A stretch of 64,000 nt of DNA from an uncultured Methylomirabilota bacterium (GCA_963705305.1 OY970067.1:4832001-4896000); one strand, 5' to 3'; positions 5,697 through 44,863 are shown, counted from the first letter of the stretch. A program made the numbers and translations. Notes: a model not told the origin generated them from the letters alone.

Positions 5697-6045
5697 CTAC
5701 CGCGTGTCCCGCTCCCGCAAGACGATAGTGATGTGGCTGCTGCGCTTCCGGACACGGTACGCGCGCCCCATGGCCCGCGGCTGAATGCGCTTGACCGTCG
5801 GCCCCTCGTCCACGAACGCCTGCGCGACCACCAGCCGGTCGAACGTCCCGCACCCCGTGATTCTGCGTGGCGTTGGCCATGGCGGAGCGCAGCACCTTTT
5901 CCACGATGCGCGCCGCCTGCCGCCGGGTCAGCTGCACCTGCACTAGGGCGCTGTTCACGTCCTTGCCCCGGATCAGATCCGCCACCAGCCGAGCCTTCTG
6001 GGCCGGCACCTGTACGAACCGCGCAACTGCTCTGGCTTCTGCCAT
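5697..6045 (-). CDS. rplV: 50S ribosomal protein L22, +1 frameshift at about 5842 (probable sequence error)
   Basis: [12 protein letters not shown]...SAMANA in one frame; [42 protein letters not shown] in the next; 349 nt = 3n+1. Confidence 0.93.
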
Positions 6046-6117
6046 GTCTGGACCCCGATCGCGACCCCGCCGTCCCGCGGGGATGATCGTCCCGTCAACG
6101 CCCCGGCGTCACTCGCC

Positions 6118-6402
6118 CTACTTGGGGGTCGTCGCCTTGGCGCTGTGGGCGCTGTGCCCACGAAACGTGCGGGTGGGGGAGAACTCGCCCAGCTTGTGGC
6201 CGACCATGTTCTCCGTGATGTACACCGGGATGAACTTCTTCCCGTTGTGGATCGCCAGCGTGTGCCCGATGAATTCCGGCACGATGGTGGAGCGGCGGGA
6301 CCAGGTCTTCAAGACCTTCTTCTCCCGCGCCCGATTCATGGCCTCGATCCGCTGCAACAGTCTGGCCTCGACGTAGGGCCCTTTTCTCAACGATCGCGAC
6401 AC
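6118..6402 (-). CDS. rpsS: 30S ribosomal protein S19
   Basis: RSLRKGPYV...KTWSRRS...[13 protein letters not shown]. Confidence 0.98.
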
Positions 6403-6450
6403 GCTGCCTCCGCACGGCAGGCACAGCCCGGGGGCCGGCGCCTGGAAGAT

Positions 6451-7269
6451 CTACTTGCGTCGCTTGACGATGTACCGGTCGGATGCCTTCCCCTGCTGTC
6501 GGGTCTTCCCCTCCCGCTTCCCCCACGGGCTGCAGGGATGCCGCCCGCCCGAGCTCTTGCCCTCGCCGCCGCCCAGGGGATGGTCATGAGGGTTCATCGC
6601 CACGCCCCGCACCGACGGGCGGATTCCCAGCCAGCGCGAGCGCCCCGCCTTCCCCAGGGAGACATTCTCGTGCTCCAGGTTCCCCACCTGACCCACGGTG
6701 GCCATGCAGGCCAGCCGCACCCGCCGCATCTCGCCCGAGGGCAGCCGCAGCAAGCCGTAGTCCCCCTCTTTGGCCACGAACTGGGCCGTCGCTCCCGCCG
6801 TCCGCACTAGGCGAGCCCCCTGGCCCGGCTGCAGCTCGACATTGTGCACGTTCACCCCCACGGGGATGTTGCGCAACGGCAGCGCGTTGCCCAGCCGCAC
6901 CTCCGCCTCGGGGCCTGACATCACCCGATCCCCGACGGTGAGCCCCAGCGGGGCCAGGATGTAGCGCTTCTCCCCGTCGGCATAGTGCAGCAGGGCGATC
7001 CGCGCGGACCGGTTGGGATCGTACTCGATGGCGGCGACGCGGGCCGGGATCCCCTGCTTGTCCCGCCGGAAGTCGATGAGGCGGTACATGCGCTTGTGGG
7101 CGCCTCCCTGGTGGCGGCAGGTCACGCGCCCCAGGGCGTTCCGCCCCCCGCGCCCGCGCTGCGGGATCAGCAGGGATTTCTCCGGAGTCCGCTTGGTGAC
7201 CTCGCCGAAATCCGAGACGCTCTGAAAACGGCGCCCGGGGGAGGTCGGTCGGTATTTTCGCACAGGCAT
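6451..7269 (-). CDS. rplB: 50S ribosomal protein L2
   Basis: YRPTSPGRR...[13 protein letters not shown]...[17 protein letters not shown]; start could also be 7275. Confidence 0.98.
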
Positions 7270-7300
7270 GGCCATGTCCTCGCGTGCGGCACGCGGCCCG

Positions 7301-7591
7301 TTACACGCCCTCGTACAACTCGATGGACTCCCCGGTCTTGAGGGTGGCAACCGCCTTCTTCCAGTCGGCCCGCCGGCCCTGGAAGCGCCCCAGGCGCTTG
7401 ACCTTCCCCCGCACCCGGAGCGTTCGGACGTCTAGGACGGTCACCTTGAACAGCTGTTCGATCGCCCGCTTAATCTCGACCTTGGTGGCCGTCCGGGCCA
7501 CCTTGAAGACGTACTGATTCCCCTCGTCCTTCAGGCGCGTCCCCTTTTCGGTCAGAAGCGGCCGCAGCACGACCTCATACGGTCCCTTCAT
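7301..7591 (-). CDS. rplW: 50S ribosomal protein L23
   Basis: RPLLTEK...[16 protein letters not shown]...WKKAVATL. Confidence 0.97.
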
Positions 7592-8217
7592 GGCGCCAGC
7601 ACCTCACGCAGCGTGTGCACCCCCTCCGGGGTCAGCACCAGAATGTCGGCCCGGAGGACGTCGTACACGTTGAGGCCCCGAACGGTCAGGACCCGGACCT
7701 CCGGCAGATTGCGCACCGACTTCTCCACCACCTCGTCCCGGGCCGGCAGCACCACCAGGGCCTTGCCGCGAGCCCCGACCCCCCGCAGCAGCCCGAGGAA
7801 GGTCTTGGTGCTGGGCTTTTCCAGGCTGAGCGATTCCAGCAGCCGCACCGCGCCGGCCTGGGCCTTGGCCGTCAGGGCGCCGCACAGCGCCTGTCGCCGG
7901 ATCGTCTTGGAGACCTGAAAGCTGTAGCTTCGCGGATGCGGCCCGAAGATCGTCCCACCGTGGCGCCACAGCCCAGATCGGCTGCTGCCCGAGCGGGCCC
8001 GGCCGGTGCCCTTTTGCTTCCAGGGCTTCTTGCCGCCGCCGGACACGTCGCTCCGCCCCTTGGTGTCCGCCGTCCCCTGGCGCCGATTGGCCAACTGCAT
8101 GCGCACCACCTCGTGCAGCAGGTGCGGCTTCACCGGGGCGGCGAAAATCCCCTCGGGCAAGTCGATCTGATCCACCTTCTCGTTTTTCGCGTTGACCACG
8201 TCCACCGTTGTCGCCAT
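7588..8217 (-). CDS. rplD: 50S ribosomal protein L4
   Basis: RQGTADTKGRSDVSGGGKKPWKQKGTGRAR. Confidence 0.98.
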   Translation of the reverse strand: MATTVDVVNAKNEKVDQIDLPEGIFAAPVKPHLLHEVVRMQLANRRQGTADTKGRSDVSGGGKKPWKQKGTGRARSGSSRSGLWRHGGTIFGPHPRSYSFQVSKTIRRQALCGALTAKAQAGAVRLLESLSLEKPSTKTFLGLLRGVGARGKALVVLPARDEVVEKSVRNLPEVRVLTVRGLNVYDVLRADILVLTPEGVHTLREVLAP

Positions 8218-8232
8218 GGATCTGCCCCGGTC

Positions 8233-8862
8233 TCACTTCCCTTTCTGGATGGTCAGCAGTCCGCCGCTGGGCCCGGGCACGGCCCCCTGCACCAGCAGGA
8301 GGTTCTTCTCCGGGTCGACCGAGACCACCCGGAGGCCGCGTACGGTGCAGCGGTCGGCCCCCATGTGCCCCGGCAGGTGGTGCCCGCGGAAGACGCGGGA
8401 GGGGTACGACGAGGCGCCAATGGAGCCCGGCGCCCGATGGAACATGGCCCCGTGGGTCATGGGGCCGCCGCGGTAGTTCCACCGCTTCACCCCGCCCTGG
8501 AAGCCGCGTCCCTTGGTAACGCCCGTCACCCGCACCCGCTCGCCGGCCGTGAACAGGCTCACGGTCAATACCTGGCCGACCTGGAACTCGCCTTCACCCC
8601 CGCGAAGGCGGATCTCCTGCAGGTGGCGCTGGTAGGGGATCTTGGCCTTGTCGAAATGCCCCTGCAGCGGCCGGGTCACCCGGCTCCGCTTCGGCTCCGT
8701 CTGGAAGCCGACCTGGATGGCCTCGTAGCCGTCCCTCTCCACGGTCTTTCGCTGCACGACCGGACATGGACCGGCCTCGATGACGGTGACCGGCACGGAC
8801 TTGCCGCGCTCGTCGAAGACCTGCGTCATTCCCACCTTGCGACCCACCAGCCCGATTGCCAT
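8233..8862 (-). CDS. rplC: 50S ribosomal protein L3
   Basis: GRKVGMTQVF...KGRGFQGGVKR...RAPGSIG. Confidence 0.98.
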   Translation of the reverse strand: MAIGLVGRKVGMTQVFDERGKSVPVTVIEAGPCPVVQRKTVERDGYEAIQVGFQTEPKRSRVTRPLQGHFDKAKIPYQRHLQEIRLRGGEGEFQVGQVLTVSLFTAGERVRVTGVTKGRGFQGGVKRWNYRGGPMTHGAMFHRAPGSIGASSYPSRVFRGHHLPGHMGADRCTVRGLRVVSVDPEKNLLLVQGAVPGPSGGLLTIQKGK

Positions 8863-8935
8863 CGCTCCACGCGCCCCGCGTCCGGCCTCGGCTGCCGGCC
8901 CCGCCCCCCTGGACGGCGGCCCCCGAGAGCCCGGC

Positions 8936-9244
8936 CTAGAGTTTGATCTCCACGTCCACCCCGGCCGGCAGGTCCAGCCGCATCAGCTGGTCCACCGTCT
9001 GCGGCGTGGGCTGCACGATGTCCATCATCCGCACGTGGGTCCGGATCTCGAACTGCTCCCGGGACTTCTTGTCGACGTGCGGCGAGCGGAGCACCGTGTA
9101 CCGGCTGATCTTCGTGGGCAGGGGAATGGGCCCCGAGATCAACGCCCCGGAGCGTTGCACCGTCCCCACGATGTCCTTGACCGCCTGATCCAGCAGGCGG
9201 TGATCGTACCCTTTGAGCTTGATGCGAATCTTCTGGTTATCCAT
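8936..9244 (-). CDS. rpsJ: 30S ribosomal protein S10
   Basis: [15 protein letters not shown]...[15 protein letters not shown]. Confidence 0.98.
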
Positions 9245-9306
9245 TACGGTACCCGGCACCCAGTCTGTGTGTGGACCCCCGCGGGGGCAGCCATGTTCCC
9301 GACCAC

Positions 9307-10509
<1,203 letters not shown>

Positions 10510-10597
10510 GTACGTGTCCCCCTGCGGGGCCTCCCTCCTGAGGCGCCCTGGCTGCCGTCGTCCGCTCTCCGCCCTGCTGGCCGCGTGCCGCGGGCCG

Positions 10598-12688
10598 CTA
10601 GGCCTCCGCGCGCATGCCGACCTTGGCGATGATCTCCTCGGCGATCTGGGTCGGGACGGGCTGATATCGGGCAAACTGGAACGGCGTATGGCTGCCGCGC
10701 CCCTGGGTCGCCGACCGGAGGTCGGTGGCGTACCCGAACAGCTCGGCCAGCGGCACCTCGGTCCGGACGACCTGCACGGCCGGCCGCGCCTCGATTTCCA
10801 GCACCCGGCCCCGCCGCGAGTTCAGGTCGCCGATCACCTGTCCAACGAACTCCTCCGGGGCGATAACGTCGAAGCGCATGACGGGCTCCAGCAGAATCGC
10901 CTTGGCTCGCCGCGCCCCATCCTTGAAGGCCATGGATCCCGCGATCTTGAAGGCCATCTCCGACGAGTCCACCTCGTGGTAGGAGCCGTCCTCCAGGATC
11001 ACCCGCGCGTCCACCATCGGGTAGCCGGCCAGGACCCCTCCCTCCAGGGCCTCGCGCACGCCCTTCTCCACCGCCGGGATGTACTCTTTGGGGATCGTCC
11101 CGCCCACGATCTTGTTGACGAATTCGAAGCCGCCAGCCGGCAGCGGCTCGATCCGGATCTTCACGTGGCCGTACTGCCCCCGTCCCCCGGTCTGGCGGAT
11201 GAAGCGCCCCTCGGCCGGCACGGAGGCGGTCACCGTCTCGCGATACGCCACCTGGGGCTTCCCCACGTTGGCCTCGACCCGGAACTCCCGCAGGAGGCGA
11301 TCCACGATGATCTCCAGATGCAGCTCCCCCATGCCGGAGATGATGGTCTGGCCGGTCTCCTCGTCCGAGGCGGTGTGGAAGGTCGGGTCCTCGTTGGCCA
11401 GGGCGGCCAGGGCCAAGGACAGCCGCTCCTGTCCCTCTTTGGTCTTGGGCTCAATGGCCACGGAGATCACCGGCTCCGGGAACTCGATGGCCTCCAGGAC
11501 GATGGGGCGGCTCTCCAGGCACAGCGTATCGCCCGTCTTGGCGTTGCGCAGCCCGACCGCCGCCGCGATGTCCCCGGCCCCCACCTGCTTGATCTCCTGC
11601 CGCTTGTTGGCGTGCATGCGCAGGAGCCGTCCCACCCGCTCTTTGGTCCCCCGGGTGGAGTTGTAGACGTAGGAGCCGCCATCCAGAACGCCCGAGTAGG
11701 CCCGGAAAAAGGCCAGCTGTCCGACGTACGGGTCGGCCATGATCTTGAACACCAGCGCCGAGAAGGCCTCGGTCTGGCTGGCCTGGCGGCGCTCCATCGC
11801 CCCGGTCTTGGGATTCTTGCCCTCCACCGGCGGCAGATCCTGGGGGGACGGCAGGTAGGCCACCACTGCATCCAGGAGGGGTTGAACCCCCTTGTTCCTG
11901 AACGAGGAGCCGCACAGGACCGGCACCACCTTGAGCGCCAGGGTCGCCCGGCGCAGGGCCCCCTGGATCTCCTCGGGGGTGAGGGTCTCCCCCTCCAGGT
12001 ACTTGTGCATGAGCTGCTCGTCCTGATCGGCCACCGCCTCCAGCAGTTGCTCGCGCGCCTTCCGGGCGGCGTCGCGCAGGGCGGGAGGGATCTCCTCGTC
12101 GTGGAAGGCGGCCCCCAGGGTCTCTTCCTCCCAGACCACGGCCTTCATCCGGATGACGTCGATGATCCCCTGGAATTTGTCTTCTTTTCCATAGGGCAGC
12201 TGGACGCAGATGGGATTCGCCCCCAGGCGCTCGGTGATCATGGACACCGCCCGGTCGAAATCCGCCCCCGTCCGATCCATCTTGTTGACGAGGGCCAGCC
12301 GGGGCACCCGGTACTTGTCCGCCTGTCGCCACACGGTCTCGGACTGGGGCTCCACACCGGCCACGGCGTCGAAGATGGCAATCGCGCCGTCCAGGACCCG
12401 CAGCGACCGCTCCACCTCCACGGTGAAGTCGACGTGGCCGGGCGTGTCGATGATGTTGATCTGGTGGTCGGCCCAGAAGCAGGTGGTGGCGGCGGAGGTG
12501 ATGGTAATCCCCCGCTCCTTCTCCTGCTCCATCCAATCCATTTCGGTCGAACCCTCGTCCACCTCGCCGATCTTGTGCGTCTTGCCCGTGTAGTACAAGA
12601 TCCGCTCGGTGGTCGTCGTCTTGCCGGCATCAATGTGGGCCATGATGCCGATATTGCGGGTTCGCTCCAATAAAAACGTCTCAGCCAT
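10598..12688 (-). CDS. fusA: Elongation factor G
   Basis: [29 protein letters not shown]. Confidence 0.99.
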
Positions 12689-12718
12689 TGCCGTCCTGCA
12701 GTCCCGGGCCGGGGTCCG

Positions 12719-13189
12719 CTACCACCGGTAGTGGGCAAAGGCCTTGTTGGCCTCCGCCATCTTGTGGGTGTCTTCCCGCTTCTTCACCGAAGAGCCGCGG
12801 TTGTTGGCCGCCTCGATCAGTTCCGCCGCCAACCGCTCCTGCATCGTCTTCTCGGTGCGCTTGCTCGCGAAGCCGATGATCCACCGCAGGGCTAGGGACG
12901 TGCGGCGCTCCGCGCGAACCTCCACCGGCACCTGGTAGGTGGCCCCGCCGACCCGCCGGGACTTCACCTCCAGCACCGGCTTGACGTTGTCCACCGCCTG
13001 CTTGAAGAGCTTCTGCGCGTCCATCTTGGTGCGGTCCTCGATGACCTGCATGCAGCCGTAGAAGATGCGCTCGGCGGTGTTCCGCTTCCCCTTCCTCATC
13101 ATGGAGTTGATGAACTTGGTCACCAGCTTGCTGGCGAACACGGGATCCGGCTGGGCATCCCGCTTCTCAGCAACTTTCCGCCGCGGCAT
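12719..13189 (-). CDS. rpsG: 30S ribosomal protein S7
   Basis: [15 protein letters not shown]...[15 protein letters not shown]. Confidence 0.99.
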
Positions 13190-13296
13190 TCCTCACTCCT
13201 CGCCACTCGGCCCCGCGGGGCATCCGCCCCGGCAGAGAAGAAAATCGGCACTGGAGGGCCGAGGCTTCGTTCCTCCGCACCCCAGTGCCGTTGGGA

Positions 13297-13674
13297 TTAG
13301 CTGCTCTTTGGTCGCTTGGCCCCGTATAGGGATCGGCTCTGACGCCGGTCGGTCACACCGGCCGTGTCCAGGGCGCCCCGGATGATGTGGTAGCGCACAC
13401 CCGGCAGGTCCTTCACGCGTCCGCCGCGGATGAGCACGATGGAGTGCTCCTGCAGATTGTGGCCGACCCCCGGGATGTAGGTGGTCACCTCGATCTGGTT
13501 GGTCAGACGCACGCGGGCGACTTTGCGGAGCGCCGAGTTGGGTTTCTTCGGGGTGGTGGTGTACACCCGGACGCACACCCCGCGCTTCTGCGGGCACGCC
13601 TGCAGGGCAGGGGCCTTTTCCTTCTTGGAGAGCTGCTTCCGCCCTCGGCGGACCAGCTGGGCGATCGTCGGCAT
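13297..13674 (-). CDS. rpsL: 30S ribosomal protein S12
   Basis: [13 protein letters not shown]...[12 protein letters not shown]. Confidence 0.99.
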
Positions 13675-13707
13675 GAGTCCCTTCCGTGTTATGCTGTGAA
13701 CCGCGGA

Positions 13708-13736
13708 AGTCTACGCGGGGGGCTCCCGCTTGTCAA
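13708..13736 (-). promoter_or_regulatory. Sigma70-type promoter of the str operon
   Basis: Minus strand TTGACA-N17-TAGACT, about 35 nt upstream of the rpsL ATG. Confidence 0.75.
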
Positions 13737-13750
13737 GGACATTCTGGCTC

Positions 13751-17860
<4,110 letters not shown>

Positions 17861-17880
17861 GGTGCAGCTCCTTCCTTCGA

Positions 17881-17936
17881 AGCAATCAGCAATCAGCTTT
17901 CAGCGGTCAGCGGCTGATCGCCAACGGCTGACAGCT
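17881..17936. repeat. Palindromic array of 7-nt units in the rpoB-rpoC spacer
   Basis: agcaatc agcaatc agctttc agcggtc agcg / gctgatc gccaacg gctgaca gct. Confidence 0.75.
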
Positions 17937-17942
17937 TCTCGC

Positions 17943-21905
<3,963 letters not shown>

Positions 21906-21920
21906 GCGTTGCTCCCCTCG

Positions 21921-25667: not shown

Positions 25668-26870
<1,203 letters not shown>

Positions 26871-32539: not shown

Positions 32540-32560
32540 CCCTTCCCGATCCGGGAGGCT

Positions 32561-33043: not shown

Positions 33044-33099
33044 GGTCCTACTCCTTTGCGACGTGCGCACATCTTCGAATTAAATCATACTCCACGAAC

Positions 33100-34491: not shown

Positions 34492-34517
34492 GCCGGCAGC
34501 CCCCGGCCCCGATCTGC

Positions 34518-34718
34518 CTAGCAAGCTGTTGAAAAAGGGCCATCGGCCGGGTACCCGCCCATTCGGGCGCTCGCTGCGGCGTATTGGAAGTACGCCTTGA
34601 CCCGCCTGTGGCGGGTGCTCGGCCCCGGGTACCCATCCCGCTGGATGGGTGAGGCCGCCTTGCACCTGGACCTTTTTGAGCAGCCTGGGCGAAAACGGGT
34701 ATTTCAGCAGCCTGCTAG
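34518..34718. mobile_element. MITE-like non-autonomous element, copy 1 (CTAG at both ends)
   Basis: Terminal inverted repeats ctagcaagctgttgaaa / tttcagcagcctgctag; 45-nt block 44/45 identical to copy 2. Confidence 0.75.
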
Positions 34719-35854
34719 AAGGCGCCCAGCGCCTGGATCCCGATGCCGATGACGGTCAGCGGCCCCTGCTCCCGCAGCGCGTCGGCGCCTTTCCCCACTT
34801 TCTTGAGGCTGTCCTTGGCCGTGAAATACAGCGAGTCGTCGTTCACCAGCTTGCCCAGGGTGCCCTCGCCGCGGTTCACCTTCTTCATGATGTCGTTGAG
34901 GTTCGCCACGGCCCCCTTCATGTCGTTGTACACGCTGTCGTCGGTGAGGAGCTTCCCGATGGTGCCCTGCCCCTCGTTGATCTTCTTGGACACCGTGCGG
35001 AGGCCGGAGAGCGCGTCGCGCGCCTCGGTCAGCATCCCGCGTGCGTCCCGGTAGAGCGAGTCGTCCTTCACCAGCTTGCCCAGGGTGCCCTGGCCGTTGT
35101 CGATCTCCTTGGCCACGCGGTTGAACGTTCCGGAGGCCGTCCGGAGATCCGCCGTCAGGCCCCGCAGGTCCTTGTACAGCGAGTCGTCGTTCACCAGCTT
35201 GCCCAGGGTGCCCTGCCCCCTCGCCAGCTGGTCGCTGACCTTGTTGAGGTTTCCGGCAATGCCCTTAATCTGGCGGTAGAGGCTGTCATCGGTGACCAGC
35301 TTCCCGAGGGTTCCTTCGCCCTTGTCGATCCGCTTGGCGATCCTGTCCATGGTCTGGAAGGTGCTGGCGATGGGCTCGATGCTCTTGCCCAGGCCCTCAT
35401 TGACCTGCTTGACCAGGGTCTGGACATCGCCCGCCGCATCGTTGAGGCGGGCCAGCAGGACGTTGAGGTCCGGCGGCTCGCTGCTCACCAGGGTGCTGCC
35501 GGACGCGGCCAGCGGGGCCGCCGGGGAACCGAAGGTGAGATCCAGGAAATTGGTCCCCAGCAGGCTGGTCAGCTTGATGGTGGCCACGGAGTCGGTCTTC
35601 ACCGGCGTACCCTCCTTCACGCCGAAATCCACCTCGACCCGTGCGCCCACCACCCGGATGTCGCGGACGGTACCCACATCCACACCCGCCAGCTTCACGG
35701 GATCACCCACCTTGAGACCGGGAATGGACTTGAAGGATGTCTTGTATTCCACCGTTCGGGCGAACAGCGCCTGCTTCCCGACCAGCTCGAACATCACGAT
35801 GAGGATCAGGAAGGCCACCACCAGGAACAATCCGACCTTGACCTCCCGTGTCAT
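34715..35854 (-). CDS. mlaD: MCE/MlaD-family protein with five C-terminal helical repeats
   Basis: EVKVGLF TM anchor; MCE motif GLKVGDPVKLAGVDVGTV; 5x G(E/Q)GT(L/I)GKL(V/L)xDDS(L/V)Y. Confidence 0.9.
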   Translation of the reverse strand: MTREVKVGLFLVVAFLILIVMFELVGKQALFARTVEYKTSFKSIPGLKVGDPVKLAGVDVGTVRDIRVVGARVEVDFGVKEGTPVKTDSVATIKLTSLLGTNFLDLTFGSPAAPLAASGSTLVSSEPPDLNVLLARLNDAAGDVQTLVKQVNEGLGKSIEPIASTFQTMDRIAKRIDKGEGTLGKLVTDDSLYRQIKGIAGNLNKVSDQLARGQGTLGKLVNDDSLYKDLRGLTADLRTASGTFNRVAKEIDNGQGTLGKLVKDDSLYRDARGMLTEARDALSGLRTVSKKINEGQGTIGKLLTDDSVYNDMKGAVANLNDIMKKVNRGEGTLGKLVNDDSLYFTAKDSLKKVGKGADALREQGPLTVIGIGIQALGAF

Positions 35855-36675
35855 GGCTGCACGCCTCCTTCCGAGACTTTCATCTGGGTGGTGATGAACG
35901 CCCGGACCACCGGGTTCTGGGTGGCCCGGATGCTCGTCGGGGTTCCGGTCTCGATAAGCCTCCCTTCGTGGATCATCCCCAGGCGGTCGGCCACGTGGAA
36001 CCCGAGGTTCAGGTCGTGGGTGACCACCAGGGCGGTGATCCGAAGCCGCTTCAGGCCGGCAATCACGTGGCCGATCTGCTCCGTCAGCACCGGATCCAGG
36101 CCCGCCGTCGGCTCGTCGTAGAGGATCAGCTGCGGGTCCATGGCCAGCGCGCGGGCAATGGCCACGCGCTTCTTCATCCCCCCCGACAGCTCCGAAGGCA
36201 TGGCGCCATCCCAGCCGGCCAAACCGACCAGCTCCAGCTTCTCGTTCACGATTCGGACGATCTCGGCCCGGCCGCAGATGCGATGCTCCTTCAGCCAGAG
36301 CCCCACGTTCTCCCCCACCGTGAGGGAGTTGAAGAGGGCCGAGGACTGGAAGATCATGGCCAGGCGCAACCGGCGGCTCCCGTCGCCCATCTGCAGGTCC
36401 GTCCCGTCGATGAGGATGCGGCCGGAGTCGGGCGCCAGCAACCCGGTGATGTGCTTGAGCAGGACCGATTTCCCGCAGCCGGAGGGGCCGAAGATGACGA
36501 ACGTCTCCCCCGCCGCGACGCTGAGCTCCAGGTCACGCAAGACGTGGTGGCCTCCGAAGGACTTGTTCAGGCGGCGGACCTCGACGCTGACGCCGGGGGC
36601 CATCGCCTCCCGAGCCGGCGGGCCGGCGGGCAGCGGATCGCGGGACGGCGGATGTGGCGAAGATGGGAGCGTCAT
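35851..36675 (-). CDS. mlaF: MlaF-family ABC transporter ATPase
   Basis: GPSGCGKS, LSGGMKKRVAIARA, LYDEPTAGLDP; start could be 36603. Confidence 0.92.
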   Translation of the reverse strand: MTLPSSPHPPSRDPLPAGPPAREAMAPGVSVEVRRLNKSFGGHHVLRDLELSVAAGETFVIFGPSGCGKSVLLKHITGLLAPDSGRILIDGTDLQMGDGSRRLRLAMIFQSSALFNSLTVGENVGLWLKEHRICGRAEIVRIVNEKLELVGLAGWDGAMPSELSGGMKKRVAIARALAMDPQLILYDEPTAGLDPVLTEQIGHVIAGLKRLRITALVVTHDLNLGFHVADRLGMIHEGRLIETGTPTSIRATQNPVVRAFITTQMKVSEGGVQP

Positions 36676-36679
36676 GGCA

Positions 36680-37444
36680 TCACATCAAGATCCGGGTGAT
36701 GACGTAGTCGAGAAAGAAGATGAGCACGAAGGACATGACCACGGCCCGGGTCACCGCCCGACCGATCTCTTCGGGGCCCCCGGCGGTCTTGAGACCGACG
36801 TAGCAGCAGGTGGTGACCACCGCCACGGCGAAGACCACCGATTTGATGACGCTGTTCATGACGTCGCTGAATTGTACCACATCCTGGAAGTTGATGCGGA
36901 ACGCCCGCACGCTCACCCCGATGCTGGGGTTGACCGACGACACGATGGCCCCTCCGATGAGGCCGATCAGGTCCACGTACATACAGAGCGCGGGGACGGC
37001 CAGGAGACTGGCCAGCACCCGCGGCATGACCAGGTAGCGCACCGGGTTGATGTCCAGGGTCTTGAGGGCGTCGATCTCCTCGTAGACGCTCATGGCGCCG
37101 ATCTCGGCCGCTATGGCGGAGCCCACCCGGCCGGTCACCAGGATCGCGGTCATGACCGGCCCCAGCTCCTTGACCAGGCTGAGCCCGACGATGCCCCCGA
37201 TCGTCCCCTCCAGGCCGAACTGGTGCAGCCGGGAGCCCGTCTGCAGGGCCAGGACCCCGCCGATGAACAGCCCCGTCAAGGAGGCGATGGGCAGCGTGGC
37301 ATTGCCGACTTCCAGCATGTGGCTGACAATCTTGTCCACATTCCTGGGGGCGGCCTTGATCCAATACAGGGACTGCAGGAGCAGAATCACCCCTTCCCCC
37401 AGTCCCTGGAGGAAGCCCTGGACGCGCGTTGTGATGGTCTTCAC
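36680..37444 (-). CDS. mlaE: MlaE-family ABC permease
   Basis: KELGPVMTAILVTGRVGSAIAAEIGAM...EEIDAL...YLVMPR. Confidence 0.94.
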   Translation of the reverse strand: MKTITTRVQGFLQGLGEGVILLLQSLYWIKAAPRNVDKIVSHMLEVGNATLPIASLTGLFIGGVLALQTGSRLHQFGLEGTIGGIVGLSLVKELGPVMTAILVTGRVGSAIAAEIGAMSVYEEIDALKTLDINPVRYLVMPRVLASLLAVPALCMYVDLIGLIGGAIVSSVNPSIGVSVRAFRINFQDVVQFSDVMNSVIKSVVFAVAVVTTCCYVGLKTAGGPEEIGRAVTRAVVMSFVLIFFLDYVITRILM

Positions 37445-39009
37445 CGGGTCCCTCCTTGCGGGTCAAGGGCGGCCAGCGGCTGGGAAACCGCAGTCCATTT
37501 CAGCACGACCTCCCCCCCCAGGCGGATAGACCGGACACCCTGTCGGACCTCGTAGGAGAAGAGCCCTCCCAGGAGTGAAAACCGGGCCTCCTCCCCCCGC
37601 TCCCGATAGGCCAGGAGGGGTCCCAGCACCTCGATGGACCGCCCCTGGGCGCTCTCCTCATGGCGCACCAGGTCCCAGAGGAAGGAGCGGGTGGCGTCTC
37701 CTTCGGGATTGCGCCGGAAGGAATACAGGGACCAGAGCGGGGAATAGTTCTGCTGGACCCATTCGTTTTCCGGCAGGAAGGCCTCCAGCAGGGCCAGCGT
37801 GTTGAAGGTCACCGCCCCCTCTCGGTCCCGCTCGTAGTGAAACACAGGCCAGGCATCCACGCGCCGCATGGAGCCGTCCCGTCCCGTCTGCCGGGTGTCG
37901 GAGTACAGGTACCAGAGGATCCGGTCCCGCACCGTCCGGCTGCCCGGGATCTCCTCCCGGCTGCGCATGTACAGGGGAAACAGCACCATGAGGTCGGTGG
38001 TCTGCATCTCCCGCAGGAAGAATTCGTGGCGCAGGGTCCGGTGCTCCAGGGAGTAGAACGGCAGGACGCGGTCGACGCTGCGTCCCTCCCCCCGGGCGAA
38101 CCGGATCAGCGGCCAGGGCAGGTCCCACTGCGCGTACTGCTGCTCCCGGTCGATCGTGTGGGTGAACAGCGGCCAGAGGACGGTGGCGCTCTCCCGCGCC
38201 TTGGAGCGCTGCGACACGTAGAAGGGCAGCACCGAAAGGGTCTCCTCCGGATCCTCCCCGTCCAGCCCGGTCCGCTGGTGAAGATAGAGGGGCCACAGGA
38301 CGAACCGCTTCTCGAAGACCCCCTCCCGGACGTCCTGTCCGTAGAGCGGAACGATCCGGAAGCCCGAGCGGCCCGGGCCGCGGGTAAGGGAGATGAGCGG
38401 CCAGGGGAAGTAGCGGGTCTCCGCTCCTCCTTTGACAAAGCGGGCGTACAGCGGGAACATGACGAACTCCGCCTCGTCCTGGCCGAGACGGTCCAGCGCC
38501 CGCCCCCCGAAGGGGAGAATCGCCCGGTAGCGCTCCCCACTGCCGGTGGTCCCGCTCAGGTAGAACGGGAAAAAGTCCGCGCGGTGCTCCCGATCCGACG
38601 GCAGGGATCCCTCCGAGCGGGCGTTGATCAGCTCCAGGAACTGGAACTGCCAGTCCCGTTCCGTCCGACTGTACGTCATGAGCGGATAGAGGACCTGCCA
38701 CTCCAGTCGCTCTGCGCGCTTGTCCTCGCGTCGGTGGAAGAGCGGCCGGATGGCCACGTCCTCGACGTTCCCGTCGGGGGAGCGGTCGGCCTCGATGAGC
38801 GGACCGAGGCTCCCCGAGGTGTGCATCCGGTCCACCGGATCCTCGCGATCATCATAGACAGGCCACAGGTTGATCGCGGCCGGCGCCGGTTCCTGGGCCT
38901 GCCCGCGTGCCTGGACCGGCGGCCAGAGGGGGAGCCCGAGAAGAATCAGGAGCGTCCCCGGGAGGACCAGTCGCCGCGCTCTGTACCGCCGCCGAGTCAA
39001 GGTTGCCAC
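37441..39009 (-). CDS. Exported hypothetical protein with about 20 (L/F)(W/F)P(L/F)(Y/F)-type repeats
   Basis: 522 aa ORF, basic plus hydrophobic signal peptide, 4-nt overlap with mlaE. Confidence 0.85.
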   Translation of the reverse strand: MATLTRRRYRARRLVLPGTLLILLGLPLWPPVQARGQAQEPAPAAINLWPVYDDREDPVDRMHTSGSLGPLIEADRSPDGNVEDVAIRPLFHRREDKRAERLEWQVLYPLMTYSRTERDWQFQFLELINARSEGSLPSDREHRADFFPFYLSGTTGSGERYRAILPFGGRALDRLGQDEAEFVMFPLYARFVKGGAETRYFPWPLISLTRGPGRSGFRIVPLYGQDVREGVFEKRFVLWPLYLHQRTGLDGEDPEETLSVLPFYVSQRSKARESATVLWPLFTHTIDREQQYAQWDLPWPLIRFARGEGRSVDRVLPFYSLEHRTLRHEFFLREMQTTDLMVLFPLYMRSREEIPGSRTVRDRILWYLYSDTRQTGRDGSMRRVDAWPVFHYERDREGAVTFNTLALLEAFLPENEWVQQNYSPLWSLYSFRRNPEGDATRSFLWDLVRHEESAQGRSIEVLGPLLAYRERGEEARFSLLGGLFSYEVRQGVRSIRLGGEVVLKWTAVSQPLAALDPQGGTR

Positions 39010-39029
39010 GTGTCTCCTGGACGCCAGCG

Positions 39030-39210
39030 CTAACAGGCTGCTGAAAGAGGCCCATCTGCGGACACCCAGCCTACGGCCGGGTACCCGCGCGCTCGCGTGG
39101 CGCTGCGACGTACGAGCGAAGTACGTCTCGCACCTCGCATCGCGCGCCGCCTTGCATCTGGACCTTTTTGAGCAGCCTGGGCGAAAACGGATATGTCGGC
39201 ATCCTGCTAA
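39030..39210. mobile_element. MITE-like non-autonomous element, copy 2 (CTAA at both ends)
   Basis: ctaa-caggctgctgaaa ... tgtcggcatcctg-ctaa; shares core and 45-nt block with copy 1. Confidence 0.72.
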
Positions 39211-40592
39211 TACTCCCGCTGCCGCTCCTGGTCCTCGAACCGCGTGTATTCCCGCAGGAAGGTCAGGTACACTGTCCCCGTCGGCCCGTTCCGCTGCTTG
39301 CCGATGATCACCTCGGTGGTGTTGTCCTCCGGCTCTTCCGGATCCTCCTCTTTGCGCGCCCGGTAGAGCGCCGGCCGGTACAGGAAGGTGACGACGTCGG
39401 CGTCCTGCTCGATGGCCCCCGACTCCCGAAGATCCGAGAGCTGGGGCCGGGGGGGCTGGCGCGACTCCACCGCGCGCGAGAGCTGGGACAGGGCCACCAC
39501 CGGGACGTTCAGCTCCTTGGCCATGGCCTTGAGGGAGCGGGAGATCTCCGAGATCTCCTGCTGCCGGCTCTCCACCCGCCCCCGCCCCGTGATGAGCTGC
39601 AGGTAATCGATGATCACCAGCCCCAGGCCCTGCTCCCCCTTCAGCCGGCGCGCCTTGGCTCGCATCTCCAGGAGCGAGATCCCGGCGGTGTCGTCGATGA
39701 AGATGGGGGCCTCGGACAGGCGGCCCGCGCCCGTCGTCAGTCTGGGCCAGTCGGCGTCCGACAGGTACCCGGTGCGGAGCTTGTGGGAGTCCACCTTGGC
39801 CACCGAGCAGAGCATGCGCTGCACCAGCTGCTCCTTGGACATCTCCAGGCTGAAGATGGCCACGGGAATCTGCTCCTGCATGGCCGCGTGCTCGGCGATA
39901 TTGAGGCAGAAGCTCGTCTTGCCCATGGAGGGGCGGCCCGCCACCACGACCAATTCCGCTGCCTGCAGTCCGGCCGTCATCTCGTCGAACTTGGCAAACC
40001 CGGTGGGCACGCCGGTGACGTGACTCTTGCGATCGTATAGCTTCTCGATCAGCTGGAAGGTGCCCTTGAGAATGCCCTTCACCGGGACGAACGAGCGGCT
40101 GACCTTGTCCTGGGAGATTTCGAAGATCTGCTGCTCGGCCCAGTCCAGGAGGTCGTCCACCTCGTCGGTGTCGGCGTAGGCTCGGCCGACGACCCCGGTC
40201 GCTTTCTGGATCAGGGCGTACAGGAGCGCTTTGTCTTTGACGATCCGTGCGTGGTAGCCGACGTTGGCGGCGGTGGGAACGGCATCCACCAGGGAGGCCA
40301 GGTAGGCGGCTCCCCCCACCTCCTCGAACCGCTTCTGGCGCATGAGCTCGTTGGCGATGGTCACCAGATCGACCGGCTCACTGCGCTCGAAGAGATCCAG
40401 GCAGGCGCTGAAGATCTTGCGGTGGGCTTCCTTGTAGAAGTCGGCCGGCCGGAGGATCTCCATGGCCTTCAGCAGCGCCGCGTTATCCTGCAGCACCGCA
40501 CCCAGGACGGAGATCTCCGCCTCCAGGTTCTGCGGGGGCACTCTGTCGGACGCTACCGCCGCATCAGGCATGGGGATGCGCATTCGGTCCAA
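39207..40592 (-). CDS. dnaB: Replicative DNA helicase
   Basis: VPPQNLEAE, AGRPSMGKT, IDYLQL, LSDLRESGAIEQDAD, KQRNGP; exact start uncertain (40571-40592). Confidence 0.98.
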   Translation of the reverse strand: MDRMRIPMPDAAVASDRVPPQNLEAEISVLGAVLQDNAALLKAMEILRPADFYKEAHRKIFSACLDLFERSEPVDLVTIANELMRQKRFEEVGGAAYLASLVDAVPTAANVGYHARIVKDKALLYALIQKATGVVGRAYADTDEVDDLLDWAEQQIFEISQDKVSRSFVPVKGILKGTFQLIEKLYDRKSHVTGVPTGFAKFDEMTAGLQAAELVVVAGRPSMGKTSFCLNIAEHAAMQEQIPVAIFSLEMSKEQLVQRMLCSVAKVDSHKLRTGYLSDADWPRLTTGAGRLSEAPIFIDDTAGISLLEMRAKARRLKGEQGLGLVIIDYLQLITGRGRVESRQQEISEISRSLKAMAKELNVPVVALSQLSRAVESRQPPRPQLSDLRESGAIEQDADVVTFLYRPALYRARKEEDPEEPEDNTTEVIIGKQRNGPTGTVYLTFLREYTRFEDQERQREY

Positions 40593-40595
40593 CGC

Positions 40596-41138
40596 TCAGC
40601 TTTCGCGTTCCACCGTGACGGCCAGCTCTGCCGTCACGTCAGGGTGGAGGCGCACCGGGACCCGGTGGGCGCCCAGGGTCTTGATGGGCTCGGGGAGCAG
40701 GATCTTCTTCTTGTCCACGCTGACGCCCTGCCCCGCCAGCGCTTCGCTCAGGTCCTGCGCCGTGACCGAGCCGAAGAGCCGCGGGGCCGCTGCGGTCTCC
40801 GCGGGGGCGGCCGCGGCCGGCGCCTCGGGGGTCTCGGGTGGCGGGGCCGTCGCCGGGGTTGGGGCCGGAGCAGCCGCCGCCTCCTCGCCGGCTCGCCGCT
40901 TCAAGGTGATCTGCACCGCCGCCAAGCGTTCCGCCAGCGCCGCCGCTTCCGTCTTGGCGCGATCCTCCCGGTTCTTGGCCTGTGCCGTCAGCTGCGTCAG
41001 CGACCGCAGGCGGCCGGAGGTCGCCAGCACGGCCAGCTGCTTGGGCAGCAGGTAATTTCGCGCGAACCCATCCGCCACCTCGACCTGCTGGCCCGGCTCG
41101 CCCAATCGCTCCACCTTCTGCATCAGGATGACTTTCAT
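40596..41138 (-). CDS. rplI: 50S ribosomal protein L9 with Ala/Pro-rich insertion
   Basis: MKVIL...VADGFARNYLLPK...LFGSVT...IKTLG. Confidence 0.96.
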   Translation of the reverse strand: MKVILMQKVERLGEPGQQVEVADGFARNYLLPKQLAVLATSGRLRSLTQLTAQAKNREDRAKTEAAALAERLAAVQITLKRRAGEEAAAAPAPTPATAPPPETPEAPAAAAPAETAAAPRLFGSVTAQDLSEALAGQGVSVDKKKILLPEPIKTLGAHRVPVRLHPDVTAELAVTVERES

Positions 41139-41239
41139 CAGCCACTCCGTTTTCGGCTCGCGGGTTCCCAGCCTCGGGTGTCCCCCGGGGAGGCCCGCCG
41201 CCTCCGCCTGCGAGACCCCGCGGCGCTGGATTCCTCGCC

Positions 41240-42207
41240 CTAGGTTCGTCCGGACATGTCTTCGGCAGGTTCAACCGCCGAAAGGCAAACCACACATCGA
41301 ACAGCCCCAGCGCCGCCACCAGCAGCGTGAAGAACGGCTGTAGGACCAGCAGGATCACAGACAGCGTGGCCAGAAACCGGGGCAGACGGAATCGATCAAA
41401 GAAAAAGGCGACGATGCTCATACCCTGCAAGAAGTACAGCCCCGCTAGGATGATGAGTCCGTTCAGTCCGACAGCCGCCCAGCCGGGAAGCTCGGTCAGG
41501 AACAAGATCCCCGCCCCGATAAAGACCCACACCAGCAGCTCCGGAAGCTCCCACCGGAACGTGGCGGGGGCCAAGCCCCCCAGCTGTTCCGGCCAGCGGC
41601 GGAGAAGGGCCTGCAGCAGCAGCACATACCCCGCGGCGGTCAGCAGGCTGCCGGTGAAGAAGAGGCCGGGAAAGGCCATCAACAAGAATCCTCGGAGGGC
41701 CGCGGTATAGCTTCCCGCCGGGACCACCCCCTCCGTCGCCCCGCCCAGGCGCCCGCCGAGAGCCTCCATCTCCGCCAGCAGGTCGCTCACCTGCTGCCGG
41801 ATCGCGACCAGCGGGTGCGCCCACTGTCCCGAGCTGAGCAGCAGCACCCCCAGGCCGCCCAGGGTGAGCACGATCGCCACGCCGGTCACCAGGAGCTCCG
41901 GGCGCCGGGCGCGCCGGAGACCTTCGGCCAAGAGCACCGCCGACACGCCGAACTCCAGCAGGAACGCCAGCGCCTGGGGAACGGACAGCGGAACGGCCAG
42001 ACCCACGGCGGCCAGGGCCAGGGCCAGGATCAGGGCCGACAACCCGTGCCGCAGCCGGAGCACCACGAAGGGCACAGGTACCAAGAGCGTCAGGGCCGCC
42101 CCCAGGACAGGAAAGAAGGTCCCGGACACAAACAGCCCCACCCCCAGCAGGGCCACCAGGACGACTTCCGCGCCCCATGCCACCCAACGAGTTCCCGGAC
42201 TCTCCAC
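41240..42207 (-). CDS. YybS/DUF2232-family membrane protein; apparent +2 insertion just before its stop
   Basis: Multi-TM protein with YFLQGMSIV and LGLFDVWF motifs between rpsR and rplI; as assembled it reads through rplI to 40639; removing 2 nt at 41253-41260 ends it at TAG 41240. Confidence 0.82.
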
Positions 42208-42239
42208 CTGCGTCCTCGGCGCTCCGCCGCCCGCAGCGA

Positions 42240-42476
42240 TCAGGCCAGATCGGCCGCGTACGCCAGGAGCGCGATGCTGCGCGCCCGCTTGATCGCCACG
42301 GTCAGCTGACGCTGGTGCCGGGCGCAATTCCCCGAGATCCGCCGCGGGATGATCTTGCCGCGGTCACTCACGAAGCTGCGCAGCCGCTTGATGTCTTTGA
42401 AATCCACCTGCACCACTTTGTCCACGCAAAACTTGCAGACCTTCTGCCGCCGGTACGTTCGCCGCTTCTTCAGCAC
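42240..42476 (-). CDS. rpsR: 30S ribosomal protein S18
   Basis: CKFC...VDFKD...[17 protein letters not shown]. Confidence 0.98.
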
Positions 42477-42693
42477 GCGCTTGTCTCCTCCTGCACCCCG
42501 GGGTGCGGGGCACCATGCCGGGCCCCCGTCCGCCGTTGCCGCGGCGGGCCGAGCCGTTCACAGACTCACCTCAATCCGAAGAACTCTCACCGCCAAGGCG
42601 CCAAGGGACAATTCGAATTCCGAAGCTCGAATTTCGAAATTGAACGGCGTGGCCTTGGCCTCATGGCGGTTCAGCAGCTCTTTCAGACCAGAA

Positions 42694-43107
42694 CTAAAAG
42701 GGAACCTCGTCCTGCTCGGGGGCGTGCGAAGGCTCCGCGTCCTCTTCGGCCGGGGGCCCTCCGGAGCCAGCGCCCTTGCGGGGACCCAGGAACTGCACCC
42801 GCTCCGCCACGACCTCGTGCTTGGAGCGCTTCTGGCCCTCCGGCGTCTCCCAGGACCGCTGCTGCAGGTGACCATCCACCAGGACGCTTCGCCCCTTGGC
42901 CAGATACTCGCCGCACGTCTCCGCCTGCTTCCCCCAGACCACGATGGTGATGAAGCAGGTCTCGTCGCGGCGCTCCCCGCCCTGGGTCGTGTACGACCGA
43001 TTGACCGCCAGGTCGAAGTTGCACACCGGGGCCCCGCTGGGCGTGTACCGAAGCTCCGGGTCGCGGGTCAAATTTCCCATCAGGATGACCTTGTTGAAGC
43101 TGGCCAT
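42694..43107 (-). CDS. ssb: Single-stranded DNA-binding protein
   Basis: NKVILMGNLTRDPELRYTPSG; acidic DEVPF tail. Confidence 0.98.
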   Translation of the reverse strand: MASFNKVILMGNLTRDPELRYTPSGAPVCNFDLAVNRSYTTQGGERRDETCFITIVVWGKQAETCGEYLAKGRSVLVDGHLQQRSWETPEGQKRSKHEVVAERVQFLGPRKGAGSGGPPAEEDAEPSHAPEQDEVPF

Positions 43108-43109
43108 GC

Positions 43110-43460
43110 TCAGGCCTCCTGCGTGACCGGCTCGGGGGCCGGCGCTGCCTTGGGCTTGCCCTTGGGGCGTCGCGGCTCCTCCATCACCACCGTCATGTAT
43201 TTCAGCACCGACTCTGCAATTTTCAAGTGCCGTTCCAGCTCGGCCACGGCCTTCGGGGCCGCCTGCACCCGGAAGTACACATAATGGCCGTCCCGCCGCC
43301 TCTTGATCTCATAGGCCAGCCGCTTCTTGCCCCACTTCTGGATCTCGGCAACCTCGCCGCCTTCCCGGGCCACCACGGCCTTGGCGGCCGTGACGGCGGC
43401 CTCGACGCCGTCGTCCCCCAGGGCGGGATCCAGGATGAAGATCACCTCGTACGATCGCAC
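43110..43460 (-). CDS. rpsF: 30S ribosomal protein S6
   Basis: YEVIFILDP...WGKKRLAYEIK. Confidence 0.97.
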   Translation of the reverse strand: MRSYEVIFILDPALGDDGVEAAVTAAKAVVAREGGEVAEIQKWGKKRLAYEIKRRRDGHYVYFRVQAAPKAVAELERHLKIAESVLKYMTVVMEEPRRPKGKPKAAPAPEPVTQEA

Positions 43461-43500
43461 TCCCCTCACCTCCTCTCCCGGCGCTCTCGCGCCGCCTGTG

Positions 43501-44112
43501 TCAGGCCGATACGCCAGCCTCGGGCGCCGTCCACCCGTTGAACCGATTCATCGCAGCATTCGCACCGTCCCGGATCACCTGTCGCGCCGCTTCCGCGGCC
43601 GCAGCGATGACCCGAGCCGCCAGGGCCCCCTCTGCGTCGAGAAACCCCGCCAGCACGTGCTCCGCCGCCTCTTGGAAGGTGGGAGGACGTCCAATCCCCA
43701 GCCGGATCCGCGGAAAATCCTGCGTCCCCAGCGCCGACTGGATCGAGGCCACGCCGCGATGCCCGCCCGCGCCCGCCCGGGCTGAAATTCGGATGCGACC
43801 CAGGGGCAGGTCGAGATCATCATGGATGACGAGCAGTCGCTCGGGGGGCAAGTCCGCCGCCAGGAGGCACGCGGCCACGGGGCCCCCGCTGAGATTCATG
43901 AAGGCCTGCGGCTTGAGCAGCGCAACCGGGACGGCGGCCAGGGCGGCCAGAGCGATCTCCGCATCCGGTGCGGGCGATCGGAACGTCGCCCCGGCCTCCG
44001 CCGCCAGCCGTTCCACCACTGCGAAGCCTACGTTGTGCCGTGTCCCGGCATAGCGCGGTCCGGGGTTCCCCAGGCCGACCACCAGCCAGCGGGCCGAGCG
44101 AATGGCCTCCAC
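43501..44112 (-). CDS. pth: Peptidyl-tRNA hydrolase
   Basis: VVGLGNPG..YAGTRHNVGF, KPQAFMNLSG, HDDLDL, GGHRG. Confidence 0.97.
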   Translation of the reverse strand: MEAIRSARWLVVGLGNPGPRYAGTRHNVGFAVVERLAAEAGATFRSPAPDAEIALAALAAVPVALLKPQAFMNLSGGPVAACLLAADLPPERLLVIHDDLDLPLGRIRISARAGAGGHRGVASIQSALGTQDFPRIRLGIGRPPTFQEAAEHVLAGFLDAEGALAARVIAAAAEAARQVIRDGANAAMNRFNGWTAPEAGVSA

Positions 44113-44863
44113 CTACTTCGGCTTGGCCTCCGTCTTGGGTTTGGCCTCGGCCTTGGGCTTGGCTTCTGCCTTGGCCTCGGCCTTGGGCTTGGCTTCTGTC
44201 TTGGCCTCGGCCTCGCCCTCGCCTTCCGCCTTCTCCTTCCGGCCGACCACCTCGGGCTCTGTCGGGGCCTCCTCGACCGCCGCCGGGGCCTCCTCTTCCG
44301 CGGCCATGGCGACGACGGACGCCACCACGCGGTCCGCGTCCTCCAGGACCCGCACCCCCTCGCCCAGGCGCAGGTCCCGGACGTGGACGGCGTCGCCCAC
44401 ATCCAGACCCGAGAACGTCCACCAGGATCTTCTCCGGGATGTTGAGCGGCAGGCATTCCACGAACAGCTGGCGCAGCGCATGCTCCAGGATGCCGCCCTT
44501 GTTCTTCACGCCCGTCGACTCCCCCTGAAGGACCAGCGGGACTTCCACCCGGATCTTGCGCTCCATGGAGATCTCGAGGAAATCCGCGTGCAGCGGCCGC
44601 CCCTTGACGGGATCCAGCTGGAGGTCCTTCAGGATCACCATGGAGCTCCGGGGGGCGTCCCCGCCCGCCAGGGAGAGGTTGATCAGGGTGTTCTCCCCGG
44701 AGCTGACGGCCGAGAGCAGATCGCGCGGACTCACCGTCACGGGCATTGGGCCGCCGGGACCCCCGTAAACGATGCCGGGAATGCGCTCAGCGCGCCGCAG
44801 GCGCTTGGCCGCCGCCTTTCCCGCGACGGTTCGGATTTCGCCTTTCAACTCGACTGTTGCCAT
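44113..44863 (-). CDS. rplY: 50S ribosomal protein L25 / general stress protein Ctc, +1 frameshift at about 44414 (probable sequence error)
   Basis: RLRR..RIPGIVYG...LHADF...PLNIPEKILVDV then SGLDVGDAVHVRDL in the next frame; 751 nt = 3n+1. Confidence 0.92.
44141..44212. repeat. 30-nt tandem repeat encoding the EAKPK-rich L25 tail
   Basis: ttggcctcggccttgggcttggcttctg(c/t)c x2 plus a partial third copy. Confidence 0.85.

Follow-up and report, generated by a model that had tools for sequence, protein, structure and literature searches.

The stretch of DNA considered here, referred to as the window, comprises 64,000 nucleotides from an uncultured Methylomirabilota bacterium (GCA_963705305.1 OY970067.1:4832001-4896000) and includes a set of core genes (rplV, two copies of tuf, fusA, rplI, yybS and rplY), several of which appear damaged at occurrences of the palindrome GACGTC. 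The genome that holds the window is assembled as one contig of 5,645,311 bases, is 98.9% complete and has a G+C content of 66%. A preliminary description of the window had proposed that four lesions, in rplV, rplY, yybS and one copy of tuf, are read-out errors reflecting a host system that modifies GACGTC. The coordinates and letters given there match those found here, and all four were verified as lesions (Table 1).

Lesions at GACGTC in the window

Three of the four lesions are insertions. In rplV, the piece upstream of the additional base (68 codons, starting at the ATG) corresponds to positions 1-59 of the Ribosomal_L22 profile and the downstream piece (47 codons, in the next frame) to positions 63-104, while in rplY the Ribosomal_TL5_C profile is divided into positions 1-47 ahead of GACGTTC and 48-82 behind it. 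Each of these two genes is present in one copy in the whole genome. The open reading frame (ORF) of yybS as assembled encodes 562 amino acids (aa) and reads through rplI; its database homologues with query coverage of at least about 97%, which are named as NC10/Methylomirabilales bacteria, are 303-334 aa in length. In all nine same-genus relatives read at this locus the stop lies 5-6 codons past an LP[KRN] motif, and in the window the relatives' stop (ending KTSGRT) is regained only upon deleting AT from GACATGTC. As a recurring two-nucleotide form of insertion GACATGTC found no support, its 49 genomic sites being mostly in-frame Asp-Met codons or ATG starts.

The fourth lesion is a substitution for which the second tuf gene serves as an internal reference. 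Aligned over 1202 bases, the two copies (9307-10509 and 25669-26870) agree at 1201, and AACGTC versus GACGTC is their sole difference. Position 9483 is C, giving GAC, in 65 of 65 metagenome contigs (4, 23, 22 and 16 in four runs). Metagenome run X1 holds the same organism, with contigs of 296-416 nucleotides that show no differences to the window; it covers the region at about 4-6x in contigs of 300-400 nucleotides, every X1 contig has C at 9483, and the X1 contig over 9348-9738 has one difference. As a separate observation, the tuf copies lie 16 kb apart and are the same over 1202 bases save the error site, which implies either that gene conversion is continuing or that the duplication is very recent.

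Restoring GACGTC repairs each gene, as had been stated previously, through abutting Pfam halves in rplV and rplY, the relatives' stop in yybS and a match to the second copy in tuf. Other occurrences of the hexamer were also correctly described as intact, numbering 26 in the window and 1594 genome-wide. A further candidate lies in fusA, where a silent error may have occurred at 10870-10865; given the genome-wide excess of GAC-GTT described below this is plausible, though not demonstrable singly.

A scan of the window for reading-frame phase, based on G+C content at third codon positions (GC3) and blind to the motif, returned four same-strand frame junctions without a stop, three of which are the rplV, rplY and yybS indels. 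The fourth, at about 58.6 kb, falls in a degenerate integrase fragment, which is a decayed mobile-element remnant and the only such junction of the window away from GACGTC.

Table 1. Features of the window and of the genome that bear on the GACGTC lesions, with neighbouring features
Feature	Coordinates	Strand	Observation
rplV (L22)	5841..5847	-	GACGTTC: additional T in GACGTC (or additional A on the opposite strand); +1 frameshift
rplY (L25/TL5)	44413..44419	-	GACGTTC: additional T in GACGTC; +1 frameshift
yybS 3' end (DUF2232)	41253..41260	-	GACATGTC: AT inserted in the middle of GACGTC; natural stop lost
tuf copy 1	9478..9483	-	AACGTC instead of GACGTC; Asp to Asn in the FRTTDVTG block
tuf copy 2	25839..25844	-	GACGTC intact at the homologous place; internal reference
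fusA	10865..10870	-	In-frame GAC GTT; candidate for a silent C>T error like the others
Ribosomal protein L9	40596-41138	-	Ala/Pro-rich linker insert of about 35 residues
L25, C-terminal end	44113-44300	-	Long Lys/Ala/Glu-rich repeat tail
Integrase remnant	58272-59043	-	Tyrosine integrase C-terminal fragment (HDLRHAYA...GHSS) behind a basic low-complexity ORF in a different frame
3-Hydroxyacyl-CoA dehydrogenase	genome ~3890640		Third frame change, near AAACGGGCGTC, between both GACGTTC breaks
Cassette partner	genome 76705-77313		202-aa ORF, convergent to the DPPY methyltransferase
PF01555 gene, cassette methyltransferase	genome 77295-78776 (minus strand)		DPPY methyltransferase with winged-helix-like N-terminal part
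PF01555 gene, L003			Mrr_N-fused SPPY methyltransferase
PF01555 gene, XhoI pair	genome ~2956100-2956260 (frameshift)		Methyltransferase next to an endonuclease of the XhoI family; its assembled sequence changes frame between the SPPY motif and the remainder of the domain, with no GACGTC-like site there
PF01555 gene, type III			Mod with Res subunit

Frameshifts and substitutions at the motif across the genome

GC3 is very high in this genome, so that composition reveals the reading frame. Among 1176 same-strand phase-change clusters, located without regard to any motif, GAACGTC/GACGTTC was the most enriched 7-mer (64 versus 26.6 expected, p=6e-10), and the next-ranked 7-mers were start/stop overlaps and ribosome-binding sites. 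When scored per site, GACGTTC also tops the 7-mers for +1 shifts (22/399 assessable sites versus a background of 1.0%), and at looser thresholds a +1 shift accompanies 60 of 636 assessable sites (9.4%, versus 2.7% background; p=1e-16). The genome-wide count of frameshifts that the preliminary description had proposed places GACGTTC at frame switches far beyond chance. Shift rates of 1.3-7.4%, none significantly above background, were obtained for intact GACGTC, for the remaining insertion variants of one base that were tested and for each of the 21 variants of GACGTTC with a single substitution, which indicates that the target is exactly GACGTC and not GRCGYC; looser motifs were ruled out by the same substitution variants. 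ORF-length gain upon removal of one base was rejected as a test, being too noisy at 66% G+C (15.6% versus about 12% in controls), and the GC3-phase test was used instead.

The 60 shifted sites are scattered along the chromosome, with the heptamer divided 27/33 between the DNA strands and 35/25 between the coding and the non-coding strand of the gene, and the inserted form shows a preference for G before it and for G, C or T after it. Skipping one base at this fixed heptamer restores the frame in many genes, as would be expected of a programmed +1 recoding signal acting through ribosomal frameshifting or transcriptional slippage. We consider such recoding the least credible of the explanations weighed here, to the point of being negligible: the heptamer lies on the non-coding strand at 25 of the 60 shifted sites, 552 of 636 assessable sites have no shift, so that only a subset of occurrences is affected, base substitutions and non-coding repeat differences are found at the same site, and the same lesion recurs in unrelated phyla carrying the cassette described below.

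All 60 sites were considered for a Pfam check, and 11, which are probably gene boundaries, were set aside, one because of a stop at the junction and ten because one half fell short of 30 aa. Both halves of the remaining 49 were scanned. At 19 sites a single domain is split with abutting profile coordinates, including URO-D, the MetH pterin domain, L22, DctM (1-158 and 163-329), SSB (1-45 and 48-104), sigma-70 region 4 (1-30 and 32-50), PEP carboxylase (1-127 and 129-432), M32 peptidase (5-223 and 226-489), PdxA (2-124 and 127-286) and the KAS C domain (1-53 and 54-119). At a further eight the break parts consecutive domains of one protein (LexA, GlmS, Fe/Mn superoxide dismutase, BirA, a CopA-type ATPase, a zinc alcohol dehydrogenase, an Xaa-Pro peptidase and Der), bringing to 27 of 49 the tested sites that break one known protein. 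Six sites were partial, the junction cutting a domain in just one of the two halves, 14 were uninformative and two resemble true gene boundaries (a resolvase start and nuoD/nuoH). One 3-hydroxyacyl-CoA dehydrogenase gene carries two GACGTTC breaks together with a third frame change off the motif (Table 1).

Substitutions at the motif were seen in a self-comparison of the genome, covering repeats of at least 400 nucleotides and at least 99% identity. GACGTC is present in one copy at 36 of the 516 positions that differ between copies, or in 16 of 105 distinct contexts, and its counterpart in the other copy is only ever AACGTC/GACGTT or GAACGTC/GACGTTC. At all eight positions where one copy differs from at least two others, the odd copy is the one with the non-GACGTC form. 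All substitutions seen at the motif are GACGTC>AACGTC (=GACGTT), and in most repeat cases the substituted form is followed by G. The repeats of the genome include an insertion-sequence-like element of 1.53 kb with dozens of near-identical copies. In confidently coding DNA the share of GTT among GTC+GTT codons is 14.5% after GAC (154/1061) and 8.5% after the remaining NNC codons (Fisher p=7e-10).

From these data we roughly estimate that about 4% of true GACGTC sites are hit by insertion and perhaps about 13% by substitution, rates that agree with the four to five lesions found beside 26 intact sites in the window. The hexamer occurs at 0.76 of its expected frequency, ranking 11th of 64 palindromes, and its avoidance was rejected as a distinctive mark on this account. 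The density of GACGTC in this genome is the lowest of 21 congeners (282/Mb versus 312-520/Mb); this low density exceeds the estimated loss to error, which hints at real selection against the hexamer.

Errors of a second kind accompany those at GACGTC. Shifts of -1 climb with homopolymer length (10/95 at G8-12 and 10/66 at A6, background 3.0%), which is a second long-read error trait of the genome. Homopolymer indels of this kind likewise break genes, whereas the GACGTC lesions lie outside homopolymers, gain a base instead of losing one and are confined to a single palindrome. Throughout the genome -1 shifts are also enriched at GCCGGCC (63/2467), CGCGTCT (13/199) and TCGGACC (13/227), which may represent further motif-bound errors.

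Real hotspot mutations, arising from deamination of methylated cytosine or as repair scars after self-restriction, would make the affected genes true pseudogenes or alleles. Methylated cytosines are known hotspots of C>T mutation, a pattern into which GACGTC>GACGTT would fit, and the repeat and tuf copies could carry genuine differences. Such an origin is nevertheless very unlikely, given that at least 27 genes are frameshifted at one 7-mer, including rplV, rplY, ssb, lexA, glmS, a sigma-70 family gene and thiC-like housekeeping genes, a burden that makes viability unlikely; moreover, deamination cannot add a base, a C5-cytosine methyltransferase of family PF00145 was not found in the genome, and the variant of the first tuf copy is present in no X1 contig.

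A viable cell is unlikely to carry frameshifts in rplV and rplY, each present once, together with others in ssb, lexA, glmS and no fewer than 20 additional housekeeping genes, which argues for errors, as do the substitutions and repeat-copy differences at the same site. The frequent position of the heptamer on the non-coding strand rules out recoding. As far as sequence alone allows, the lesions are present, recurrent, exact to the motif, and errors. The earlier proposal of read-out errors is strongly supported by two recurring edits at the exact hexamer, broken housekeeping genes, both orientations and an odd repeat copy that is always the non-GACGTC one. We conclude that the four lesions are very probably systematic consensus errors of long-read (nanopore-type) sequencing at GACGTC, with methylation as the most likely cause, and not mutations.

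Probable DNA modification and a candidate restriction-modification cassette

Two forms of error dominate. In the first, the A/T beside the outer G/C is duplicated, giving GAACGTC (=GACGTTC) and a +1 frameshift; in the second, G>A at position 1 gives AACGTC (=GACGTT). Methylation of GACGTC, probably as G(m6A)CGTC (m6A, N6-methyladenine) in the manner of M.AatII, is the most likely trigger; the methyl group would perturb the pore signal such that the base caller misreads the G-A step, taking G as A or calling A twice. Targets of type II methyltransferases are typically exact 6-bp palindromes. Modification appears likely because GACGTC is itself an exact 6-bp palindrome, because the adenine methylated by M.AatII adjoins the misread G, and because G>A matches the signature of R10.4.1 data.

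The product of M.AatII is given as G(m6A)CGTC (Clark et al. 2012, PMC3287169). With R10.4.1, bacterial modifications are described as producing strand-specific errors, chiefly C2T/G2A (C-to-T and G-to-A), that are absent from amplified DNA (Liu et al. 2024, PMC11610603), G2A is reported as the most elevated error class in methylation-motif units (bioRxiv 10.64898/2026.01.14.699587), and assembly errors are reported to strike only part of a motif's occurrences (PMC12392509; see also Chiou et al. 2023, PMC10687267). As far as the cited sections of this literature extend (PMC11610603, PMC10687267, PMC12392509), the known modification-mediated errors resemble those found here in being tied to a short motif of which a subset is hit, in the dominance of G>A/C>T, and in persisting into the consensus, where they create false single-nucleotide polymorphisms (SNPs) and broken genes. 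Relative to the same sections, the present case differs in that a frameshifting one-base duplication is as conspicuous as the substitution, and GACGTC is not among the motifs that they name; our analysis also proceeds from the assembly alone, without reads, unlike those studies. The AatII system, in the portion of its description cited above, shares the same hexamer, and the A that M.AatII methylates both adjoins the misread G and is the apparently duplicated base.

With regard to the writer of such a mark, PF00145, PF02086 and DndC were not found in the 98.9% complete genome, which holds one PF02384 gene, one weak Eco57I-like match and four PF01555 genes of the amino N6/N4 class (Table 1). 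The best candidate is a two-gene type II restriction-modification cassette at genome positions 76705-78776, a low-GC3 island (0.64-0.67 versus 0.81-0.91 in its neighbours). Its methyltransferase has an N6_N4_Mtase match, a DPPY motif and a score of 351 bits to the PADLOC type II methyltransferase model, and its homologues have generic names only. Compared with M.AatII by description and not by sequence, it is alike in class, as an N6_N4-type amino-methyltransferase with DPPY, and the system differs from that of AatII in the additional N-terminal winged-helix-like part of the methyltransferase and in its partner, a 202-aa protein without a family.

This partner matched no Pfam, NCBIfam or PADLOC family. 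Its relatives were found at 356 loci in species-representative genomes of many phyla, and in the 80 loci kept (73-85% identity) the methyltransferase is convergent and directly downstream in 78, with one ending 82 bases past the ORF and one of other geometry. Residues D93, E113 and K115 of an HPDL...EGVEIK pattern (PD...ExK) are invariant in 41 aligned relatives. For the AlphaFold model of the protein (predicted local distance difference test, pLDDT, 86), Foldseek against the PDB returned nothing at E<=0.001, its weak rows being nearly all restriction enzymes, and a Foldseek-independent search gave nine matches at Z>=5, all of them restriction endonucleases, led by NaeI (Z 8.8, root-mean-square deviation 3.9, 145 residues) and followed by SwaI, 3ndh, EcoRV, SfiI, BglI, NhoI, DpnI and NlaIV. 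The motif and the fold mark the 202-aa protein as a predicted PD-ExK endonuclease. Together, the conserved pairing, the PD-ExK motif and the restriction-endonuclease fold indicate that the cassette is a type II restriction-modification system; that it is specific for GACGTC, and thus AatII/ZraI-like, is a tentative assignment that may or may not hold.

Among the other PF01555 genes, the frameshift in the XhoI-pair methyltransferase represents either a different assembly error or a real inactivation. Beside the L003 methyltransferase, a 457-aa ORF was rejected as a gene, its codon-position G+C identifying it as an antisense shadow, and a 619-aa gene downstream matched no Pfam family.

The association between cassette and motif was assessed by scoring +1 shifts at GACGTTC in samples of 0.4-1.2 Mb from three other long-read-like assemblies. 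In a gammaproteobacterial genome with the cassette (G021), 4 of 26 sites in 400 kb are shifted (background 5.7%, p=0.059); in a betaproteobacterial genome with the cassette (G022), in which the L003-type methyltransferase was not found, the count is 4 of 25 in 380 kb (background 3.4%, p=0.0095). In a genome from the window's own genus with the same G+C (G005, six contigs), in which neither cassette gene was found, 8 of 177 sites are shifted (background 3.1%, p=0.19) in a sample raised to 1.2 Mb from 400 kb, which held too few sites; this assembly shows long-read-like -1 shifts at G6 runs (19/274 versus 2.9%). Pooled, the two cassette genomes differ from G005 (8/51 versus 8/177, Fisher p=0.011). 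Pfam identified two clear breaks in G021, in a GT4 glycosyltransferase between its two domains and in a KpsF-like protein between two CBS domains, and a partial one in an epimerase cut at profile position 54, while four control 7-mers (424 sites) gave no clear breaks in the four pairs tested. In G022, ThiC is split between profile positions 216 and 217, precisely at GAACGTC. With the genome of the window included, the lesion is found in 3/3 long-read genomes with the cassette, on small counts, and is not significant in the one without, a comparison that points to a link between the cassette and the GACGTC lesion. In the G021 sample (C3:100001-500000), CCAGTGG/CCACTGG is the top 7-mer at +1 shifts (9/37), and at GACGTTG there are two breaks validated by Pfam, in Band_7 and in ABC_trans_aux; both motifs may mark further errors of the motif-bound type in that assembly.

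The same comparison bears on the view that the base caller or polisher has a context bias at GACGTC and that no DNA modification is involved. Modification signal was not observed, the data being an assembly only, about 5-17% of sites are affected, and flanking bases matter for both forms, all of which such a bias would accommodate. We nonetheless consider it improbable, if less so than mutation or recoding: the 66% G+C congener G005, with its long-read-like homopolymer errors, shows no significant excess and differs from the genome of the window (8/177 versus 60/636, Fisher p=0.045), type II methyltransferases typically act on exact 6-bp palindromes such as this, and motif-bound G2A/C2T errors are, in the sections cited above, tied to methylation and gone in amplified DNA.

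Several points weigh against consensus error through cassette-borne methylation. At the level of the lesions, the AT insertion in yybS is a lone case with no second example genome-wide; X1 contigs have no listed indel at rplV 5841-5847, though X1 may not bridge the site; and the X1 contig at the tuf site lies wholly within the stretch common to both copies and may derive from the second, which makes it weak support for error. The excess of the GAC-GTT codon pair could in part come from real avoidance of GACGTC. With respect to the modification, we infer the sequencing platform, the modification, its type and the responsible enzyme from the assembly and not from raw reads or signal; the outer C>T fits a methylated cytosine equally as well as G>A fits m6A. 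With respect to the enzyme, the SPPY-type L003 methyltransferase is likewise in the genome, and G021 has three homologues (45-51% identity) of it. The comparison covers three genomes with the cassette and one without, on small counts and with G021 alone not significant, and G005 is taken as a long-read assembly on its -1 shifts at G6 runs. Finally, GACGTC density within the genus does not follow the cassette (472/Mb and 362/Mb in the cassette-bearing G004 and G006, 282/Mb in the genome of the window), and across the 21 genus genomes it was rejected as a correlate, showing no clean relation.

The preliminary description had also placed the modification system outside the window. This part of its account is favoured by the error signature, the precedent of M.AatII, the candidate cassette and the recurrence in cassette genomes, all of which support it only indirectly.

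Consequences for the genome and for long-read assemblies

Neither the pseudogene-like appearance of rplV, rplY and yybS nor the Asn of EF-Tu should be taken as a sign of gene decay, of recoding or of adaptation. One heptamer accounts for frameshifts in no fewer than 27 genes, or about 40-80 when judged by the excess over background, and the genome contains perhaps a couple of hundred false G>A sites. Errors at GACGTC skew gene calls and the counting of pseudogenes, as well as quality scores based on marker genes and comparisons based on SNPs. That motif-bound modification errors occur in nanopore assemblies is already known from the literature; the presence of the same scar in two public long-read metagenome genomes, G021 and G022, makes this a problem at the level of data sets, which motif-aware polishing can correct. 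The analysis yields an inventory of false lesions, a caution to those who use long-read metagenome genomes and, for a widespread restriction-modification cassette without a name, a target-site assignment that can be tested.

Beyond its effect on annotation, the scar is informative without recourse to raw signal: it exposes what is probably a methylation motif and directs attention to the system responsible for writing the mark. If the cassette is indeed GACGTC-specific, then the error scars in long-read assemblies would suffice to read its specificity, and methylation motifs, along with the target sites of uncharacterised restriction systems, could be mined from public nanopore genomes without raw data.

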